A DNA stretch of 64,000 bases from Candidatus Micrarchaeia archaeon (GTDB taxonomy: Archaea > Micrarchaeota > Micrarchaeia > CAILAH01): positions 65,061-129,060 of the forward strand of contig JAVZCB010000004.1 of assembly GCA_038874595.1 (NCBI GenBank). Reading direction: 5' to 3'. This document shows positions 3,133 through 61,653 of the stretch, one piece after another. The notes below the pieces were generated by a model. It ran no database searches, was not told the DNA's origin, and saw nothing but the letters and a program-made list of their open reading frames with translations. The position numbers and the translations under genes were made by a program. How positions within the stretch are numbered: position 1 is the first letter of the stretch; each line of letters starts with the position of its first letter.

Positions 3133-6100
3133 ATGTTTATGCAAAGGCCGCAGTTATCGGTAGCATTGTTTATGCTATTAATCTTAACTGTTGCACCGGT
3201 ATCTGCAAAGCTGGTTAGCACGGCTGGAAGCAAGAACATCACAACAGCTGAAATACATATTGAAATGCTCCCTGAGCATAAGTATAATGTCACAGTTATA
3301 GTGTATGAATTAACACAATATATGGCAAGCAAGGAAGAAATAGAAACTGCTGCGGCAAGTGGTGGCTTTGTAGGTTCTGGGGCAGTGATGATGCCGTTGG
3401 CGTATGCACCTGTAAAACTTCTTGTAGGAAATAATATTTATGCTGTTGGTACAACCGCGGCAGATGGGAAAGCTAATTTTATTGTTGATACGGACCCCAA
3501 CAAAATGACATTTGATTCGCGCGGCTGCACCGAGGTTTATGCGCTGTATAGCGGTGACCAGAAGCACCTTCCATCCCAAAGCAAAAGTGAGATTATATGC
3601 AAGGATTCATCAGCGATTATAACACCTGCACTTATAGAGATAACCGGTATCATAAAGGAAAGAGAAAGGCTTCAAAATGCATGTATGCTTTTCTTTGTTC
3701 TGATAGGTTTTCTTGTTGCCGGCCTTTATGCCTCTGGGAAAGACCCATTGAGGCTCCTTGATATCACGACACCCCGGCTACCCGGGGCACGTAGGAAACC
3801 TGAAATAAAGGTAAGCTTTAACGAAGATAAGTTCAAAACACTCCGCGCAACACAGCTTAAGATGGTGGAAGAGTTTGATAACCAGATTAAGACAACTGCA
3901 AAAACAATTGCACGGAATGCATCAAGTGTAAGAAATGCCAACGGTATTGCAAGAAAACGTGAAGAGCAGAGAATATACGACAAGATAATTGATGAGATAA
4001 GTGGCATAAGAGATGCCTACAAAAAGAGATTGAAAGAGCAGACCGGCGGGTTACCTGTTAAGTCTGCCATTATGGTTGATAAGAAGTTGTTTGAGGGGAT
4101 GTATAAGGATATTGCAAATGCTCTAGTAAAAAATGCTTATGAGCATATCAAAGAGCCAGAAAACAAGGTACGCAAGCAGATTAACACGGAGTGGGGCGAG
4201 AATGGGCGACAGCAGAATACAATTAAAAAGATTGCTGAGGCCAGGCACGCTGCAGACTTAATTTCACTTACCCAAAGAGGGCCTACCTCTCCTGTTATGA
4301 AAGGGTTGGGGTACACCGGGACAATAAGCGATATAAGAAGAAAAGCCGAGGCAACCACTGGGATAGGATATGCTGTTAGGGTGGTTGACAACGTGCGTGG
4401 TTATGTTAATATGGCCGTCCAGTACGGGAAGTACTCATCAAAGTATGCCTCCACGGCCGTTGGGTATAAATTGGCAAAAAATGCGGAAGAGAAGGCGAGG
4501 AAAGAACTAAGGTCATTGCAGGAAAGTTATGACAGGGAAAGCGAAGCATTTGCGCGCAAGTATCGTGGGCTGAAACCGCTTGCTCAGTATTCTGATTTTG
4601 AGGATATTCAAAAGGATGCTGCAGGGCTCAATATAACAGTCCCAATTAAAGATTATCATGAAAGGCAGCTAAAGCTTGAGCAGATCAAACAAAAGATAGA
4701 CCAGCAGAAGGAGGAGGTTGAAAAGCTTAGCAAGAAAACCGCAGAGCAATGGGAAAAATTCGAGCCTGTTTATTACACTGGTGCACAGATACCTGATATA
4801 ATCAAGACAGACAAGGTTGCAACGATGCGTGTGAGTGCGCTTGCAAAGGAAGTGCTCAATGACATAAACCATCGCCTGTTTTATGAGCTGAGGCAAAGGG
4901 GGCTTATGACCGAAGATGAGATTGATAGGTTTAATGGTAAGTTGCAGGGGATCCCTGATATTGCAAAAAGGCGTGAGGCCATATTTGACAAGTTCAGGGA
5001 GCTTGGAAAAGAGGATCTATACAACGCGGTTATGAGCGAGAAACTTTACGTGGAAGTGATAAATTACGATGATAAAGAGAGGGGTTTCTATAAAAATGAT
5101 GATAACTCCGGGTACTACACACTGCAACAAATCGCGGAGATTGCTGAGAAAAACATTAATTCAACCAGCTATGAGTCATCTGCCCTTGTGATTGGCGCTG
5201 CAAGGGCGATTGCTGCAAACCCCATCAAGTTTGAGGCGCTTGTTGAGACACAGGAGCAGCAGCTCAGGAGATATATTGAGCTTGATGAGTTCGTTAAAAG
5301 TGATGTGATACAGGTATGTGTAAGAAGCGGTATGAAGAAAGGTATAGAGTACCTTATGAAGACTGAAAAAATAGAACCAGCCGCAAGAATAAGGGAAACA
5401 CACGCACAATACATAGGAGATGAAGTCCTTATTGAGTTGTGGGGCAAGAGATTAAGCAAAAAACATGAGCGTTTTAGGGGCAGATTAAAAAACATAAGTG
5501 AAGAGGAAACTGCATTCCTTATATACAGCGAGGCGTTCAAGCGTGTTTTATCATACGTGAATAAAAAATATGCCGGCGGGAAGATTAGCTATTCAGACCG
5601 GGATATCAACCTTGTGCGGCTACGTTATGCGAGAGAGATGGCCGAGCTTGAAAAAAGAGGAATAAGAGACCAAGAGGAGCGGCAGCGCAGGGAAGATAAA
5701 ATAAGAAATGCAGCCATTAATGGCATAATTGATGCAAGCAAAATTTTAGTTGACCAGAGCGATAGGGATGATATCTATAATGCGTTCACCACGAGCGAGC
5801 AAATAGTTGCCGACCCGCAAAACGTAAAGAAAATGCTAAAGGATGAGGCACTTTTGGAAGCTGCAGTTATTGAATGGTCGGCACTAATGGCACTTTACAG
5901 GGCTACTGGTATTACCGGGCTTACCGGCCTTAAGCAGAACATTGGGGATTTGGCAAACAGTGCGGAGTGGGAGCAAACGTGCAGGAAGGTGCTCTTTGAA
6001 AGGGCGCGAGAATTCAATGCGAATAAGAAACATCTTCTGTTAAGATTGAATAATGAGCTTGGAAACATTGTTAACTCTGAGAGAGCAAAAACAATGGATG

Positions 6101-9100
6101 CGGAGGACCTGCTCCTTGCAATAGATAAGGTTGCAAATGAGGTCGTTTATGATTCGCTGATGGAGTTGTTTAGAGAGGTTAGCCGTGAGAAGGGTTACGA
6201 GAATTTCTACAGAACAGAAATGATAAGGGGTAAGGAGCACATATTTGTCAAAGGGTTTGTGGACCCAACAATTGAGGAAACGCCAAGCCTTGTTACACTT
6301 TACAAGAAAGAGCTGCCAAATATGTCAGAGCGCTTAATGGCTATTATTAAAGACGAGCTTGCGAAAAGAGGTATCCAGGATCCGGAGAAATATGCACAAA
6401 ATTATGCAAACTATCACGATACTATTTCCTACAAATATCCTATGCTGCATCCTGGTGCGTACCCTCTTAAGGATGCGTTGCATAAGTACGCTTGGATACA
6501 AGAGATTGGAAACAACTATCTTGCGTGCCCCAAATTTGCACCTGATTATGAAACGATGGGTGCTCCGGATAAGATGGTTAATGCTGGTGTTGCGGAGATA
6601 GAAACTGAGATTGTAGAAGATAACCGTAAAGTTAAGGTAAAACGGAAAGTTGTGCTCCCAGTTCAGGATACATTTGCGAGGAAAGCGGCCGCGTTCCTTT
6701 CTACCCAGGCAAACCAGTTCCTGACCGGCGGGTATATTGGGACGATGGCAGAGGCCGCTGCGACAACAGTTACGTATACACGGCACGGTGCATTCCTTAA
6801 GAAGCTTGTCCAGCCGTATCAGGGGAAGGAGGGGTTTGTAAAGGATGTCACAAGGAATGAAGCGCTTGCTGAGAAGCTGTTGGAAGCATACAAGCTAAGG
6901 TACCTGCTTGAGAAAAGGAAGAGCTTAAAAGACACTGAGCTTGAGATGGTATTAAAAGAGCTAAGCCCAGATAAAATAAAAGATTCGATATTGGCCGAGC
7001 TTGAAAGCATCAGAGCTAAAAAGGAGCGTGAGAAAGTCCCGGAAGCTGCCAATATGGATATATCGCAAGTTGATAATCTTATAAATGAACGCGTTGCCGC
7101 GATGCAAAATGAGACAGACCTAAGGAAATTTGATGAGATGGACACATATATAAACGAGCTGCGGGAGTACAGGGATATTCTAAAGTGCATAGACACAATA
7201 AAGGGGATTTCATTTGTAGTTACTGGTGCTGATTTTGGGAAAGACCCAAAAAAAGCTCTACAAGACCTTAATCTCAACATAGAGGTTGAAAAAGAAAAAC
7301 TCGATAAAATGATTGCACAAGTTAAGCCCTACGTTGGAGAGTATGTAATGCAGGAATTGCTCAATGACCTGCTTGTTAAGAGCGGGAGCTATGCCAAAGA
7401 AAAGGGGGAAGAGCTTGTATATGTTACGCAGGAGATTGAGTTTGTTGACAGGGTGGCGGTGGATTCTCTATATACTTCAATTACTAATGAGGTGTCAAAG
7501 GCAGGCCTTGATAAAAACGAGTATGCTATGCTCCAGCCATACCTAGCGCCACCTAAGACTGCTGAGGAGCTTGAGAGGAACTATGAAGAGATAATGAAAC
7601 TCCTTAAGAAAATAAGAGAGGACCGGCTAAACGCAGTAAAAGATGACGTTGACGCACTTGATATGGCTGGCAGAACGGAAGCTGCCGTGAAAAAGAAGTA
7701 TTCCAGGAATATAGATAAGCTTATTGCTGATACTGACTCCTGGAAAGAAGGTTTAAGGTCTTTAAGAAGTGAGCTTATAGGATTGGCTTCAACTGTGCCA
7801 GAAGGTAAGAGAGCGATTGGGATCATTGATACAACAATCGCTTCCGGTAACGCTGAGGGCGCGTGCAATGAATTGATAAAAACGCTTGAAGAAGCCAAAA
7901 ACAAAAGTGGAGTGAGTGATTCTAATGCCCAAAAGCTGGATAGACTGCTTGGCTCGGTGAAAAATTTGGTCACAAAGGCGCAGGCACTTGACAATAGTGC
8001 GGCTGAGCTCGATAAGAGTGCAAAAGAGATTGCCGCACGGATAGCTGCTGACCCAGAATTTGCTAGAGCGCTTGAAATCATTTCAAGGTCTCCAGAGGCC
8101 GCAATTAGTGATATGGCTACTGGAATAAGAACTGTGAAGGATGGGCGTGAACTATCTACTGCTATTGATAACATCTTTGCAGCAATAAAAAACGAAAGAA
8201 GCAGGCTATTGCAGGGGGTATCTCTTATTGAGCAACAGGAGGAAGAGCTCATAATCACAACAGAAGATAAGATAAGAGCGCTTGCAGAACGGAGGAGAGC
8301 GATGCAAAAACGCAAAGAGAGCATAGAAGCGAACATCCACATTTACTCTGCAATAACGCCGTGGTATTTCTGGAAAGCTACTACAATTAGATACTCGAGT
8401 GCGTTGCTCGTAAGGGTATGGAGATACCTGAAGGAGAAATTCACTCGGCAAGAGATTGATAGGGAAACGCGGCGCAGGTCATATTTCTCAAACGGTAGCC
8501 TTGTCCAAGAGGTGTTTGAGTATTCACGGCTTGTTAAAGACAGAAAAGGGGAAATGACTGAGTTTGAAAACTTAATGGCACAGCACGCGCGCAACCTTGC
8601 ATACCTCACTGAAAAATTCCTTGTGCGCGCTTTTGGCATGTATGCATCATTTGAGGCCGGGATGCATACAAGAAAGAAAGCGTATGGATTAAACTTTTCT
8701 GGTGAGGCGGGTTACCAATTCGCCGGCCCACTGCCATCAACATTAATGCAGCAAATAACCACTTATGGAAGATTTGGGAATGCTGGCTGGTTTACATCAA
8801 TGCTGCTTGCATACCCGATACGTAAAGCACAGCAGACATATGCACGCAGGTATCCGTTGCTCAAACTTATATCTGGCATTCCTGCTGTATATGAGCCAAT
8901 GAAGAGCAGTACAAGCACATTCAAGGGCACTGTTAAAGGAATGATGACTGCAATGCTCTATATGAGATACAAGGACAAGTATGCACGTATGGGAGAGATG
9001 ATAAGGTCCACTGCCAAGGATACGGCACCGAGGGCATTCTTCCCATATCTTTTAACATCAAACCCGTATGGTGAAATGAGAATCAGTGAATTGCTGGAGC

Positions 9101-9822
9101 TTGCAGGGGACGGGTTCAGGACATCGCCACGCGGGCCGAGGGATATGTTGAACTACCTGCTTTACAAGCCGAATGATATAGTTGTGGACTTCCAGGACAT
9201 AATATACTCAATGAAAGACGGCAGGTCAATGAAGAAGACGCCTGAGCACCTGATGGATGTAGGCATTTATGGTGTTGTAGGAAATTCAGGGTTCATTGCA
9301 GGCAGGGAGATAAACTTCATTAATACTGCGCTTGGCGGGCCTGAATCAATGTATCAAAACCGGGCATTCAACATGTTCAACTATAACCCACAGCTTAGCA
9401 TACCACAGATGAGGTATTCTGCATATGGTGATATGTACAAGAGGATGTCAAAACCGATAGATATTGCAGAAGAGATGATACACCTAACACAAGCATCGCA
9501 GAGAATAGCTGTTGAGGCTCTCATCGTGCCTCCGCTAATACTTGCAACTACCTATTTTGGAGGATATATGGCAAACCTGATGTGGAATAGCCATACAATG
9601 CGTGCAATATCAAATGCAAGCGGTAGTGGGATGGCACTGTTCTTTGCTGGGAGCATAGGTGCCATAGGTATGATTTATAGGTATGAGAAGCTAAACTCAC
9701 TTAAAAGGATTGCACGCATACCTTATATGAGCGATGAATGGAAGACATATATAAAATTCAGTGAACGTATGAGAAATATGCATATGGGAACTTACAAATC
9801 AGAGGTATTTTACCATGAATAG
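3133..9822 (+). CDS. Giant (2229 aa) membrane protein of unknown function
   Basis: Signal peptide, beta-rich Ig-like region, TM at about aa 184-200, long charged helical/coiled-coil region, two hydrophobic segments near the C-terminus. Confidence 0.85.
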   Translation: MFMQRPQLSVALFMLLILTVAPVSAKLVSTAGSKNITTAEIHIEMLPEHKYNVTVIVYELTQYMASKEEIETAAASGGFVGSGAVMMPLAYAPVKLLVGNNIYAVGTTAADGKANFIVDTDPNKMTFDSRGCTEVYALYSGDQKHLPSQSKSEIICKDSSAIITPALIEITGIIKERERLQNACMLFFVLIGFLVAGLYASGKDPLRLLDITTPRLPGARRKPEIKVSFNEDKFKTLRATQLKMVEEFDNQIKTTAKTIARNASSVRNANGIARKREEQRIYDKIIDEISGIRDAYKKRLKEQTGGLPVKSAIMVDKKLFEGMYKDIANALVKNAYEHIKEPENKVRKQINTEWGENGRQQNTIKKIAEARHAADLISLTQRGPTSPVMKGLGYTGTISDIRRKAEATTGIGYAVRVVDNVRGYVNMAVQYGKYSSKYASTAVGYKLAKNAEEKARKELRSLQESYDRESEAFARKYRGLKPLAQYSDFEDIQKDAAGLNITVPIKDYHERQLKLEQIKQKIDQQKEEVEKLSKKTAEQWEKFEPVYYTGAQIPDIIKTDKVATMRVSALAKEVLNDINHRLFYELRQRGLMTEDEIDRFNGKLQGIPDIAKRREAIFDKFRELGKEDLYNAVMSEKLYVEVINYDDKERGFYKNDDNSGYYTLQQIAEIAEKNINSTSYESSALVIGAARAIAANPIKFEALVETQEQQLRRYIELDEFVKSDVIQVCVRSGMKKGIEYLMKTEKIEPAARIRETHAQYIGDEVLIELWGKRLSKKHERFRGRLKNISEEETAFLIYSEAFKRVLSYVNKKYAGGKISYSDRDINLVRLRYAREMAELEKRGIRDQEERQRREDKIRNAAINGIIDASKILVDQSDRDDIYNAFTTSEQIVADPQNVKKMLKDEALLEAAVIEWSALMALYRATGITGLTGLKQNIGDLANSAEWEQTCRKVLFERAREFNANKKHLLLRLNNELGNIVNSERAKTMDAEDLLLAIDKVANEVVYDSLMELFREVSREKGYENFYRTEMIRGKEHIFVKGFVDPTIEETPSLVTLYKKELPNMSERLMAIIKDELAKRGIQDPEKYAQNYANYHDTISYKYPMLHPGAYPLKDALHKYAWIQEIGNNYLACPKFAPDYETMGAPDKMVNAGVAEIETEIVEDNRKVKVKRKVVLPVQDTFARKAAAFLSTQANQFLTGGYIGTMAEAAATTVTYTRHGAFLKKLVQPYQGKEGFVKDVTRNEALAEKLLEAYKLRYLLEKRKSLKDTELEMVLKELSPDKIKDSILAELESIRAKKEREKVPEAANMDISQVDNLINERVAAMQNETDLRKFDEMDTYINELREYRDILKCIDTIKGISFVVTGADFGKDPKKALQDLNLNIEVEKEKLDKMIAQVKPYVGEYVMQELLNDLLVKSGSYAKEKGEELVYVTQEIEFVDRVAVDSLYTSITNEVSKAGLDKNEYAMLQPYLAPPKTAEELERNYEEIMKLLKKIREDRLNAVKDDVDALDMAGRTEAAVKKKYSRNIDKLIADTDSWKEGLRSLRSELIGLASTVPEGKRAIGIIDTTIASGNAEGACNELIKTLEEAKNKSGVSDSNAQKLDRLLGSVKNLVTKAQALDNSAAELDKSAKEIAARIAADPEFARALEIISRSPEAAISDMATGIRTVKDGRELSTAIDNIFAAIKNERSRLLQGVSLIEQQEEELIITTEDKIRALAERRRAMQKRKESIEANIHIYSAITPWYFWKATTIRYSSALLVRVWRYLKEKFTRQEIDRETRRRSYFSNGSLVQEVFEYSRLVKDRKGEMTEFENLMAQHARNLAYLTEKFLVRAFGMYASFEAGMHTRKKAYGLNFSGEAGYQFAGPLPSTLMQQITTYGRFGNAGWFTSMLLAYPIRKAQQTYARRYPLLKLISGIPAVYEPMKSSTSTFKGTVKGMMTAMLYMRYKDKYARMGEMIRSTAKDTAPRAFFPYLLTSNPYGEMRISELLELAGDGFRTSPRGPRDMLNYLLYKPNDIVVDFQDIIYSMKDGRSMKKTPEHLMDVGIYGVVGNSGFIAGREINFINTALGGPESMYQNRAFNMFNYNPQLSIPQMRYSAYGDMYKRMSKPIDIAEEMIHLTQASQRIAVEALIVPPLILATTYFGGYMANLMWNSHTMRAISNASGSGMALFFAGSIGAIGMIYRYEKLNSLKRIARIPYMSDEWKTYIKFSERMRNMHMGTYKSEVFYHE

Positions 9823-12553: not shown

Positions 12554-13654
12554 TTATTTTTTGACTTGTATTGTCTGTGTTGGGAACGCAAACTCAATCT
12601 TGTTCTTCTCAAACGCCTTCTTTATCTCAAGATTAACTTGGTGCACAGTCTGCCTTAGCTGTGTAGGGTCTTTAATCCAGTAGCGCATATTTATGTTCTG
12701 CGAGTATGCACCATATTCCATAAACCTTATATCGTGCCTTGAGATGTTTGGGTGCGAAGAGACAATATCTGTAAGAACCTGTATTGCTTTCTCGATTTTT
12801 TTGCTATCGTGGTCATAAATCAGCCCGATTACCTGCTCTATCATACGCTCATTGGCCATTGTAAAGTTCTCAACAACATCAGTAACAACCTTGTTGTTTG
12901 GGATTATGAGATAAGTGCCTGAAAGGAGCTCTATCCGTGTATTCCTAAGTGAGACCTGCCTCACTGTTCCTTGATACTGCCCAATCCTGACAAAATCGCC
13001 TACCCTGAACGGCTTGCTTGTGAATATTACAATCGCTCCTATGAAATTGCTTATCGAATCTTGCGCTGCCAGTGCAACCGCAATACCGCCAATTCCAAGC
13101 CCTGCAATCAGTGCCGTAACATCAAACCCAAGGTTTGAAAGCAGGAATATCAGTGTAAGCAGCACTATGATAATCCGCAGTAAATTGCGTACAAGTGAGA
13201 TGAGCTGTTCGTTGAGCTTGCTATCACCGCGCTCAGCGTGCTTTCTCATGTATCTTACAACAAAAGAGTCGATGAACCTAAGAATGAGCCATGCAACATT
13301 TATTGTGAGGAGTATCTCAAAAATGCTATCAATAAATATGTAAGGCACGGAATCTGGGTTCAATGCAATTGCCTTACCTATATATAAGCCAAGTATTAGC
13401 ACAAATATGATTATTGGGCCTTCTGATATCTCAATCAGTATGTCATCAATTTCGGTTTTTGTATTCTTTGCGATCTGGCGCAGGTACTTTGCAAAAATGA
13501 CGTACACGAGCTTTGAAAGCAGGTAAAACAGGACAAGAATCCCAAAAAATTCTGCGTACTGTATTAAGGAGTTGCCGTATATCAGGGAGCCTTCACTAAC
13601 ACCGCTATAAATCGCCTTAACGGATTCATTAAGCATATCTGTTGCATTGCCCAT
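12554..13654 (-). CDS. mscS: Small-conductance mechanosensitive channel
   Basis: GLGIGGIAVALAAQD, KPFRVGD, IPN and IEFAFPTQ; start chosen at ATG 13654. Confidence 0.93.
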   Translation of the reverse strand: MGNATDMLNESVKAIYSGVSEGSLIYGNSLIQYAEFFGILVLFYLLSKLVYVIFAKYLRQIAKNTKTEIDDILIEISEGPIIIFVLILGLYIGKAIALNPDSVPYIFIDSIFEILLTINVAWLILRFIDSFVVRYMRKHAERGDSKLNEQLISLVRNLLRIIIVLLTLIFLLSNLGFDVTALIAGLGIGGIAVALAAQDSISNFIGAIVIFTSKPFRVGDFVRIGQYQGTVRQVSLRNTRIELLSGTYLIIPNNKVVTDVVENFTMANERMIEQVIGLIYDHDSKKIEKAIQVLTDIVSSHPNISRHDIRFMEYGAYSQNINMRYWIKDPTQLRQTVHQVNLEIKKAFEKNKIEFAFPTQTIQVKK

Positions 13655-13715
13655 GGGCTTCTTTATACTGACCAAAAATTAAAAAAGTTAACAATTCCGA
13701 ACTATAACAAGTATC

Positions 13716-13884
13716 ACGGCACACATCTACAGTTGCCGTTGGTGGTAGGGCCAAGCAAGCAAAGATTTGCGGGCGCCGGCTCCCTACAGCTTCGGTTGCC
13801 GGGGGTTGATAAGGGTATGCTTTCGGCATCGGCCGAAAGATGCGCCTTTTGCTTTTTGCAAAAGTGCGCCGCGCTGGGGGCCCT
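13716..13884 (+). ncRNA. Unassigned GC-rich multi-hairpin RNA directly upstream of tRNA-Ser
   Basis: Closing helix AGGGCC/GGCCCT, a C(UUCG)G tetraloop and several perfect hairpins; no credible ORF. Confidence 0.45.
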
Positions 13885-13887
13885 TAT

Positions 13888-14010
13888 GCCGAGGTGGCAG
13901 AATCCGGTAATGCGTACGCCTTGAGAGCGTATGTCCGAAAGGACTTAGGAGTTCAAAAGGAATCACTGGCGATTTTCTGCTGGTGGTCGATGAGAATCTC
14001 CTCCTCGGCG
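13888..14010 (+). tRNA. tRNA-Ser(TGA) with a 39-nt intron at position 59/60 (13958-13996)
   Basis: Acceptor GCCGAGG/CCTCGGC+G; anticodon arm TACGC-CTTGAGA-GCGTA; long variable arm GTCC-GAAA-GGAC; T stem AGGAG/CTCCT; splicing restores TTCAAAT. Confidence 0.92.
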
Positions 14011-14127
14011 CTTTTTTCTCATTTCTCTTTATCGATAATCGATAATCAGTATATGCTCGCCTCGGAGGTTTTACCTAATGGTAAAAACCCTGCAGCACAG
14101 CTCCAGGTCTCCTCCTCGGCGCTTTTT
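13997..14127 (+). repeat. 20-bp direct repeat of the tRNA-Ser 3' exon plus T-tract (13997-14016 and 14108-14127)
   Basis: TCTCCTCCTCGGCGCTTTTT occurs twice, 111 bp apart. Confidence 0.9.
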
Positions 14128-14166
14128 CTGATTTTATCTTCTGCACACTTATGAGTAAAACTAAAA

Positions 14167-15528
14167 TTAGAATTCAAGGTTTTGCATCATATCCCTGATA
14201 TTATGCACTTCAACAAGGTTAATGATATCCTTCTTCTGCGTGCGCACCGCGGCAGTGAACACAACCGTATCCTTCTCCTCGATCAGGCCGTGCTCAAGGC
14301 AAAACAGTGCAGCACGTGGAAGGATATGCTTCTTTGGCATTGCTGTCCACATAACCGGTATAACATTATATAATAAGCTCATCTGCGCCGCAACTTCCTG
14401 GCTTGTTGTGATGGCAATGAGAGGTTTCGGCAACTTAAACCTTGAAATCACCTGCGCACCGTAACCGCCGCGTGTTACCACCACAATCTTATCAATCTCT
14501 TTGTTTGATGCAATCGAATATATTGTATTGCTTAATATCTGCGATGTTGGGTCAAGTGATTTGACGTGCTCGGTGCAATTAATCTTCGTTTTAACATAGG
14601 GCGCAATCCGCCTACCTACTTTCTTGATTGCACGCACTGCATTAAGCGGGTACTTGCCAACAGCGGTCTCATTAGAGAGTAGGATTGCGTCTGCACCATC
14701 CAAAACAGCGTTTGCAATATCACTCACCTCTGCACGTGTCGGTACAGGATTGTTTATCATGGAATAAAGTACTTGCGTGGCCACAATGCTCGGTTTGGCA
14801 TGCTGATTGGCAATATCAATTATTTCCTTTTGTATTATCGGAACTTCCTCTGCCGGAACTTCAACACCCAAGTCACCACGTGCAATCATAACACCATCTG
14901 CCTCCCGGATAATTTCGTTTATGTTGCGCACGCCATCCCAATTCTCTATCTTTGCGATTATCTTCGCGCGCGTATACTTCCGTGCCTCCCTGACATCGCG
15001 TGCAGTACGCGTAAACGAGAGTGCCACAAACGACGGGGCAGTAGAGCGGAGCACCTCAACATCGGGTTTCTTAAGAATCGGAAAATTAAACGTCCGCTCT
15101 TTCATATTAATGCTCATCCTGTCCTTTATAGTTACATTATCATGCGCTTCAAGCCCAATCATGCCTTTTGACCTTGACACAACCTCCATCTCAACAAGGC
15201 CATCATCTACATACAGTAAATTGCCAATACGTAAAAAAGAGTACATATCCTGGTCAAAACATGGCTGTGCGCCGCCCGGCCTTCCTATTTCCAGAGTTTC
15301 GCCTTTCTTGAGCGTGATTGCCTTTTGTGTGCGTATCCTTACCTCCGGCCCTGAAGTGTCAAGCATAACCGGCTTATTGTGTTTTGCTATGAGATTATAC
15401 TCACGCACCGCATCTGCAACTGATACGTGTGATAGGTTTAAGCGGACAACATCACTTTCAGCAAGCACCTGCGCAAGCACTTTGCTATCATAAAGCGAAG
15501 GCCCATACGTTGAGATTACCTTAACCAT
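14167..15528 (-). CDS. pyk: Pyruvate kinase
   Basis: RLNLSH, DTSGPEVR, IAKIEN, MIARGDLGVE, PTRAEVSD and LSNETAVGKYP. Confidence 0.96.
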   Translation of the reverse strand: MVKVISTYGPSLYDSKVLAQVLAESDVVRLNLSHVSVADAVREYNLIAKHNKPVMLDTSGPEVRIRTQKAITLKKGETLEIGRPGGAQPCFDQDMYSFLRIGNLLYVDDGLVEMEVVSRSKGMIGLEAHDNVTIKDRMSINMKERTFNFPILKKPDVEVLRSTAPSFVALSFTRTARDVREARKYTRAKIIAKIENWDGVRNINEIIREADGVMIARGDLGVEVPAEEVPIIQKEIIDIANQHAKPSIVATQVLYSMINNPVPTRAEVSDIANAVLDGADAILLSNETAVGKYPLNAVRAIKKVGRRIAPYVKTKINCTEHVKSLDPTSQILSNTIYSIASNKEIDKIVVVTRGGYGAQVISRFKLPKPLIAITTSQEVAAQMSLLYNVIPVMWTAMPKKHILPRAALFCLEHGLIEEKDTVVFTAAVRTQKKDIINLVEVHNIRDMMQNLEF

Positions 15529-42706: not shown

Positions 42707-42864
42707 GGGCCCGTAGTCGAGTGGTTAAGACGCCTCCCTTACAGGGCATTCTTTCCAGTGGAAGCGGGAAGAAAAGCCTTTGAAAGGTGGAGATCCCCAG
42801 TTCAATATCTTCGCTTCTGGCTCATTGAAATGCCAAAGTGATGATGAAAATCTGGGCGGGCCCA
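42707..42864 (+). tRNA. tRNA-Val(TAC) with two introns: 37/38 (42744-42784, 41 nt) and 59/60 (42807-42850, 44 nt)
   Basis: Acceptor GGGCCCG/CGGGCCC+A; anticodon arm CCTCC-CTTACA|A-GGTGG; T arm CCCAG-TTCAAT|T-CTGGG with a clean BHB. Confidence 0.9.
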
Positions 42865-61474: not shown

Positions 61475-61653
61475 AGCCCCGTCGTCTAGCGGTCAAGGAT
61501 GGGAGGCTCTGGACGAAGGGAGCCAGCGCCCCCTTCGCAACCCCGGCTACCCGTAGCTGACTACGAAGGGAGCCAGCGCCCCCTTCGCAAAAAATACACA
61601 TAACACAAAAAAGGGGAAACCTCCAGACAGCGGTTCGAATCCGCTCGGGGCTA
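61475..61653 (+). tRNA. tRNA-Gln(CTG) with a 106-nt intron at 37/38 (61513-61618)
   Basis: Acceptor AGCCCCG/CGGGGCT+A, with the A1-U72 pair typical of archaeal tRNA-Gln; GGAGG-CTCTGG|A-CCTCC; AGCGG-TTCGAAT-CCGCT. Confidence 0.93.
61513..61590 (+). repeat. 28-bp exact direct repeat inside the tRNA-Gln intron (61513-61540 and 61563-61590)
   Basis: ACGAAGGGAGCCAGCGCCCCCTTCGCAA twice, separated by 22 nt. Confidence 0.95.

Follow-up and report, generated by a model that had tools for sequence, protein, structure and literature searches.

REP/REPIN sequences with RAYT are distinguished by a GTAG-type tetranucleotide at the hairpin foot and by a connection to the HUH Y1 family. PATEs are gene-less derivatives of IS200/IS605 ends and have been described in Haloquadratum (PMC3119063) and Geobacillus (PMC10055086). 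The IS200/IS605 elements themselves are cut at a terminal motif, and their targets are chosen by a motif located upstream of the insertion (PMC10055086). SMR-A of Haloquadratum has terminal inverted repeats and was described as targeting PATEs and IS605 elements (PMC3119063). For the BoxC/PIT/TM-ECO repeats a transposon link was not found, and tRNA goes unmentioned in their description (PMC4666352). Additionally, how archaeal tRNA introns arrive has been called an open question: in a 2026 census of Asgard archaea, neither copying nor mobile elements nor reverse transcription emerged as a general route (bioRxiv 10.64898/2026.10.13.758758).

The window analyzed here, a whole stretch of 64,000 nucleotides, belongs to a Micrarchaeia genome of 0.92 Mb that is 93.5% complete (G000). 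A block at 13716-13887, with a GC content of 58% against approximately 44% genome-wide, is flanked by a divergent mscS gene and by tRNA-Ser(UGA), which starts at 13888. This block is the 5' leader of the tRNA and consists of two tandem copies of a repeat of about 40 nt, each with a hairpin cargo. No description of the repeat was found in the literature searched.

Two repeat modules before tRNA-Ser(UGA)

The features of the locus, and the copies of the module found in an intron of the same window, are the following:

12554-13675, minus strand: mscS, the divergent neighbor outside the element, with three MscS Pfam domains
13679-13687, plus strand: TATA-like box, the putative promoter of leader and tRNA, with matching boxes at tRNA-Ser(UGA) of three related genomes (G001, G002 and G008)
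13716-13730, plus strand: 5' remnant with a CTAC end, whose start pairs with 13734-13739; truncated first modules are also seen in arrays elsewhere
13731-13787, plus strand: module A, with a degenerate G-run motif and a stretch that recurs nearly identically before other tRNAs of the genome
13794-13887, plus strand: module B, whose stem foot abuts tRNA +1 and which has a 35/41 match to a transposon right-end hairpin
13816-13868, plus strand: two-hairpin cargo within module B, a second repeat family with 8 copies in the genome
13888-14010, plus strand: tRNA-Ser(UGA) with a T-loop intron of about 39 nt (about 13957-13995), recognized by Rfam tRNA (33.7 bits), the spliced sequence and the intron hairpin
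14012-14122, plus strand: downstream hairpin unit of a different repeat, repeated behind tRNA-Ser(GGA), whose last bases duplicate the tRNA 3' exon (14108-14122)
61514-61590, minus strand: two reversed module copies that form the start of the 37/38 intron of tRNA-Gln(CUG), with matches of 48.1 and 22.5 bits to model R1

The repeat unit begins with GGTTGC and a G-run, followed by a hairpin in which a CGCYGG loop separates a 5' arm rich in purines from a 3' arm rich in pyrimidines. In module A the stem pairs 13745-13750 with 13782-13787 (GTAGGG/CCCTAC), and one cargo hairpin (13751-13771) and the loop motif (13774-13779) lie inside it. Module B, which belongs to the same subfamily as the tRNA-Phe leader of G002, carries GGTTGC and the G-run at 13794-13805, the stem at 13809-13815 and 13881-13887 (ATAAGGG/CCCTTAT) and the loop motif at 13872-13877. 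The cargo of both modules was inserted after the 5' arm. The eight copies of the module B cargo in G000 have varied yet paired stems; four are found in leaders and four elsewhere, two of the latter in introns of Cys and Arg tRNAs.

The stretch 13771-13804 is 100% identical to two copies located directly before tRNA-Ser(GGA) of the same genome, and 91-94% identical to copies before its tRNA-Cys and tRNA-Phe. In these three arrays, the foot of the last hairpin is once again flush with tRNA +1. Behind the tRNA, the unit at 14012-14122 shares 44-48 nt of its 3' part, without mismatch, with two near-identical units that follow tRNA-Ser(GGA) (G000:C3:54790-54990); its exon copy begins at the T-loop splice position. 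Two other features of the window were recorded: an ORF of 2229 aa (3133-9822) with a predicted N-terminal signal or membrane region, and a tRNA-Val(UAC) (42707-42864) with two introns, in the anticodon and the T loop, which ARAGORN missed, its scan of the window giving zero tRNAs.

All the hairpins with located arms that had been described in a sequence-only reading of this DNA were recovered at their coordinates, and folding of the block was modestly above chance (RNA z about -2.0, DNA z -2.96). The RNA minimum-energy fold does contain the helix AGGGCC/GGCCCT, which that reading took to close the block, but this helix is formed by the 5' arm of module A and the 3' arm of module B and so joins two copies of the same repeat. 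Its pair probability was approximately 0.59 with RNA parameters, and the fold containing it reached -74.2 kcal/mol vs. -71.1 for the modular fold. With DNA parameters the closing helix was not favored, and the stem of module B had a probability of approximately 0.87. The two module stems, regarded earlier as mutually exclusive, are compatible with each other, and both covary across homologues; the closing helix is not a conserved feature. Across 23 distinct terminal stems, 39 of 46 outer pairs were formed; the shuffles gave 22, and 0 of 5000 were as high as observed, a significance that is overstated because the register was set by rule and the rows are related. As judged from these sequences, the covariation shows that the hairpin is maintained; it does not give the reason for its maintenance.

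Folding predicted a further local hairpin at 13716-13739, where 13716-13730 is probably the decayed end of an earlier module. Conservation of an extra hairpin 5' of GGTTGC was not significant (mean best helix 4.66 vs. 4.43 in shuffles, with a maximum of 4.97), and therefore the likeness of 13716-13739 to the inner hairpin of the transposon described below is a by-eye resemblance only. A positive outcome would have turned the first hairpin of the earlier reading and its UUCG hairpin into features of the family. At the other end, the element runs to 13887 (-1), flush with tRNA +1, and not to 3 nt before the tRNA as had been supposed. The hairpins are real, but the block is not a stand-alone ncRNA gene.

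The remark that no TATA box directly precedes the tRNA needed a correction, as a TATA-like box lies 5' of the whole block (13679-13687). The matching box is found 33 nt upstream of tRNA-Ser(UGA) +1 in G001, 102 nt in G002, 191 nt in G008 and 209 nt in G000. In G001, of the same genus, the tRNA has no leader; in G002 the leader is an unrelated hairpin of 70 nt, and in G008 it is another subfamily of the same repeat. These empty and differently filled homologues, compared with one another, show that the block was inserted between the putative promoter of the tRNA and its +1. From the order of promoter, leader and tRNA we infer that the leader would be transcribed with the tRNA and removed by RNase P, the RNA of which is encoded in the genome, and this favors the co-transcription and the release by tRNA 5' processing that had been suggested earlier. 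At this tRNA the leader is probably neutral. The 70-nt hairpin of G002, another genome of the same genus (L181, about 345-416; G002:C3), has TTTCAT as its last bases, directly before the tRNA (-1), a resemblance to an intact IS200 right end that may be chance.

Several known RNAs were considered for the block and rejected. An Rfam covariance-model search gave no credible match of the block to a known family, SRP and RNase P RNA included. Archaeal SRP RNA (RF01857) gave no match in 13500-14300 at E values up to 10, and archaeal RNase P RNA (RF00373) gave no match at the block; the true genes, both above cut-off, are at G000:C2:58425-58694 (103.8 bits) and G000:C5:56176-56512 (91.4 bits), respectively. 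Since these two RNAs are encoded elsewhere in the genome, the block is neither of them. Known self-cleaving ribozymes and other Rfam RNAs were likewise discarded, as the tRNA alone passes and the next best match over the block had 17.9 bits against a cut-off of 65. An H-type pseudoknot GCCGG/CCGGC as ribozyme core is lost in most homologues and is not kept with the CGCTGG loop, and an acceptor-stem intron with a bulge-helix-bulge motif was dismissed after no valid 4-bp central helix was found by hand.

Homology to an IS200-type transposon end

A pattern of 23 bases from the unit matched 30 stretches in a species-genome collection of 596 Gb. Most of them (24/30) belong to Woese-, Nano- or Micrarchaeota and one to a Methanosarcinales bin, the five bacterial ones being chance-like. 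In the copies of the Woesearchaeota type, the unit is located shortly 3' of a gene of 146-160 aa with an HUH motif, which scores as Y1_Tnp (PF01797; E 1e-11 to 1e-16), and is followed by TTCAT and then by unrelated DNA, with 49 different flanks. Two copies of one element have a common left boundary and different flanks, and no tRNA was found beside the Woesearchaeota-type copies scanned. The Y1_Tnp gene, the TTCAT end and the varied flanks therefore identify the unit as the last right-end hairpin of a dispersed IS200-type element. A conserved hairpin-rich region of about 280 nt extends from the left end to the transposase gene of these elements (L143, about 5650-5930; also L094, L116 and L125), and no Rfam match to it was detected in L143 or L094.

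Module B without its cargo is identical to the Woesearchaeota right-end hairpin at 35 of 41 positions, and the unit of the Ser leader of G008 at 35 of 40. At the level of sequence, the homology of the module to the IS200-type right-end hairpin is thus shown, and descent may have run in either direction. The copies at tRNA junctions, including the one in the window, end at the hairpin foot and have no terminal TTCAT; TTTCAT is kept only between the units of one intron array, in tRNA-His of G000. The left end of the intact element was located, and no counterpart was seen by eye in the leader. Some right ends of Micrarchaeia Y1 elements have only the usual subterminal palindrome; in others an additional, similar hairpin is present, with its foot directly against the terminal pentamer. 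The extra hairpin is missing from related transposons and is therefore an accessory of the transposon, on which it may be a passenger too. The link between the repeat and a transposon end is new, no paper found in the literature search having made it.

Moreover, a mobilizer was looked for. Y1_Tnp was found above cut-off in none of the nine genomes of the family, G000 (93.5% complete) included, in a set where the drafts are incomplete; in the whole class, Y1 genes are present in 26 of 151 genomes. G000 yielded neither RVT_1 nor the TnpB zinc-finger domain. The only reverse transcriptase of the family is that of G001, which looks like the diversity-generating-retroelement type and is located beside an RT-16 RNA (L238, 1255-2651; G001:C26). 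Neither the repeat motif nor the transposase was found in viral contigs.

Polarity at tRNA processing sites and the ways of spreading

The family was scanned with a covariance model of the short unit, and 44 matches were obtained in seven of its nine genomes. The terminal junctions, read by eye (n = 35 in the family), are not independent of one another, since an insertion in one tRNA gene can be carried to others through the sequence they share; three primary events, followed by conversion, could be enough to explain the pattern. Fifteen junctions are in sense orientation and exactly at tRNA +1 (Ser UGA, CGA and GGA; Cys; Phe). Another 15 are antisense and 0-1 nt from the 5' splice site of an intron, 12 in the T loop and three at 37/38, among them the tRNA-Gln of the window (61514-61590), where the module foot lies 1 nt after G37. 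The remaining five are outside tRNA genes, one with a duplicated gene end. The opposite polarity at a tRNA was not found among the 35 junctions.

Every tRNA targeted at +1 starts with GCCG. Four of the six GCCG-starting tRNAs of G000 have the unit, a fifth has a degenerate copy, and tRNA-His (G-1) has none; the subfamily of the unit was not found at -1 of the other G000 tRNAs inspected. Across the class, an exact pattern matched few genomes (9 of 401), and several of these look like chance. Other repeats with a G-run and a hairpin, of different sequence, are present at G000:C2:58720-58873, C1:24517-24670, C3:52252-52300 and C3:50374-50420; their ends coincide with +1 of Ser(GCU), Leu(CAA), Leu(GAG) and Pro(GGG) or are no more than a few bases away from it, and two of them are tandem.

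Additional copies deserve description. The T-loop intron of tRNA-His (L177; G000:C2:11957-12200) consists almost entirely of reversed modules, one long and three short, with TTTCAT separating the units and placed after the hairpin of the internal ones. In L046 (1471-1607, minus strand; G003:C17), three module copies of 48 nt stand in frame (a 16-aa repeat) at the start of a phosphomannomutase-like gene and directly precede an FGTNG motif, a possible coding insertion. In L188 (1417-1580; G001:C37), a module lies between two copies of the last 14 codons of a gene whose differences are almost all silent, as if an allele from a relative had recombined in. The modules of L088, L109 and L112 are flanked by similar diverged short duplications.

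We think it fairly likely that the block is an orphan transposon-end repeat that is co-transcribed with the tRNA and removed by RNase P, and that owes its spread to template switching or gene conversion. Because RNase P would remove it from the shared precursor, such a leader would be close to neutral, and it would now be spread without a transposase of its own. A 3' end of DNA or RNA produced at a tRNA cut point, or a nascent strand, would switch template onto the foot of the hairpin and copy the module. This single rule would account for both orientations, forwards before +1 and backwards after the 5' splice site, and repeated switches would give tandem stacks with truncated 5' members, of the kind observed in arrays of G000. 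Once a few primary events had taken place, gene conversion between tRNA genes would become possible through short stretches of homology, namely GCCG at +1 and the T loop that they share. The candidate enzyme would be a host primase or polymerase; a host enzyme is plausible here, given that template switching by the Sulfolobus primase has been seen in vitro (PMC3333859). The tRNA copies have no terminal motif and their shared motif (GCCG) is downstream, and therefore ordinary transposition does not fit. A more specific reading, which we put forward tentatively, is that a hairpin shed from the right end of an IS200-type transposon has become a tRNA-processing-site element of Micrarchaeia, whose 3' foot would be captured by cut tRNA ends, so that a single donor would give rise to 5' leaders as well as to new spliceable introns; the capturing ends would be those left by RNase P at +1 and by the splicing endonuclease in the anticodon and T loops.

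A non-autonomous IS200/IS605 derivative of the PATE type, moved as single-stranded DNA by a Y1 transposase acting in trans, appears an unlikely explanation. It would agree with the homology to the transposon right end, the TTTCAT after the hairpins of internal units in the tRNA-His array of G000, the five insertions of the family that lie outside tRNA genes, one of which has a duplicated gene end, and the Y1 genes in 26 of the 151 genomes of the class. However, the transposase would have to cut in an unusual way at the hairpin foot and to prefer folded tRNA genes as targets, and no Y1 gene was found in the nine family genomes. In addition, the tRNA junctions are devoid of the TTCAT where an intact element ends, a left end was not recognized in the leader, and the target motif of IS200/IS605 is upstream (PMC10055086) while the shared GCCG is downstream.

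We consider it rather improbable that the leader was domesticated to aid or regulate tRNA maturation, by stacking of the terminal hairpin on the acceptor stem or by a long-range pairing that switches RNase P cleavage. The exact -1 position, the covarying stem, the retention at Ser, Cys and Phe genes in two genera and the two folds within about 3 kcal/mol would be expected of such a leader. By contrast, it is missing at Ser(UGA) of G001 and replaced by an unrelated hairpin in G002, its copy number and subfamily vary, the module is also found backwards in introns and at non-tRNA sites, and the alternative pairing is a trivial consequence of having two similar repeats.

The novel single ncRNA with one closing helix that the sequence-only reading had proposed was not supported, as the block is a stack of repeat modules that recur in introns and beside other tRNA genes. 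A free-standing structured ncRNA, or a self-cleaving ribozyme, released from the pre-tRNA would be compatible with the GC-rich, multi-hairpin fold (z about -2), the lack of an Rfam family and the probable release by RNase P. It is nevertheless highly improbable, given the modular repeats in both orientations, the non-conserved closing helix, the GCCGG/CCGGC pseudoknot lost in most homologues and the match to a DNA transposon end. Finally, a minus-strand leader or regulator of mscS, also proposed earlier, would agree with the divergent start of mscS within about 60 nt and with the same neighbor in G008. It is barely credible, as near-identical modules are found at Phe, Cys and other Ser genes with other neighbors and G002 appears to retain the intergenic promoter stretch without modules.

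Significance and comparison with known systems

At tRNA genes, the repeat forms the start of at least 15 introns and occupies 15 leaders; away from them, it has a recognizable relative in a transposon end of which many copies are dispersed. This makes the repeat a candidate donor, and a testable source, of such introns. The strict orientation rule is a constraint that any mechanism must explain, and together these features give defined substrates for enzyme tests. If the more specific reading given above is true, archaeal tRNA introns could be traced back to a DNA transposon end by a route that is independent of the transposase. These results are also a warning for annotation, as GC-rich folds beside DPANN tRNAs can be repeats instead of new ncRNA genes.

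As in the Thermoproteales, where transposed tRNA introns have been reported (Fujishima 2010, as summarized in bioRxiv 10.64898/2026.10.13.758758), related sequences recur across tRNAs and positions. Unlike what that summary gives for the Thermoproteales introns, the repeat is also present in 5' leaders, in the opposite orientation, and has a relative outside tRNA genes, the transposon end. The BoxC/PIT/TM-ECO triplex repeats share with it a purine-/pyrimidine-rich hairpin, a G-rich flank and an intergenic location, but by eye the repeat does not fit the TM-ECO consensus (PMC4666352). Some copies have GTAG...CTAC ends, as in REP/REPIN; this identity was rejected, as GTAG is not conserved, the stem ends vary freely and no Y1 gene was found in G000. 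Moreover, the linked gene is an IS200-type TnpA of about 150 aa in a dispersed element, and not a single RAYT locus flanked by REPs.

SMR-A resembles the module in its small size, its unexplained mobilization and its location inside IS605/PATE ends, the hairpin here being located between the subterminal palindrome and the terminal pentamer. It differs, by its description, from a module with a one-sided G-run that is mostly found at tRNA cut points. Like PATEs, the repeat is short, non-coding and palindromic, is homologous to an IS200/IS605 end (35/41 to a hairpin 3' of PF01797 genes) and has no transposase of its own. In contrast to PATEs, only the last right-end hairpin is present, with no left end recognized and no TTCAT at the tRNA junctions, and the copies form tandem stacks with a strict polarity at tRNA processing sites. 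Neither a TTCAT at the right boundary nor a cognate Y1 transposase in the host was found, and therefore the repeat was not classified as a PATE. By analogy, it may work most like a PATE or a small mobile repeat (PMC3119063).
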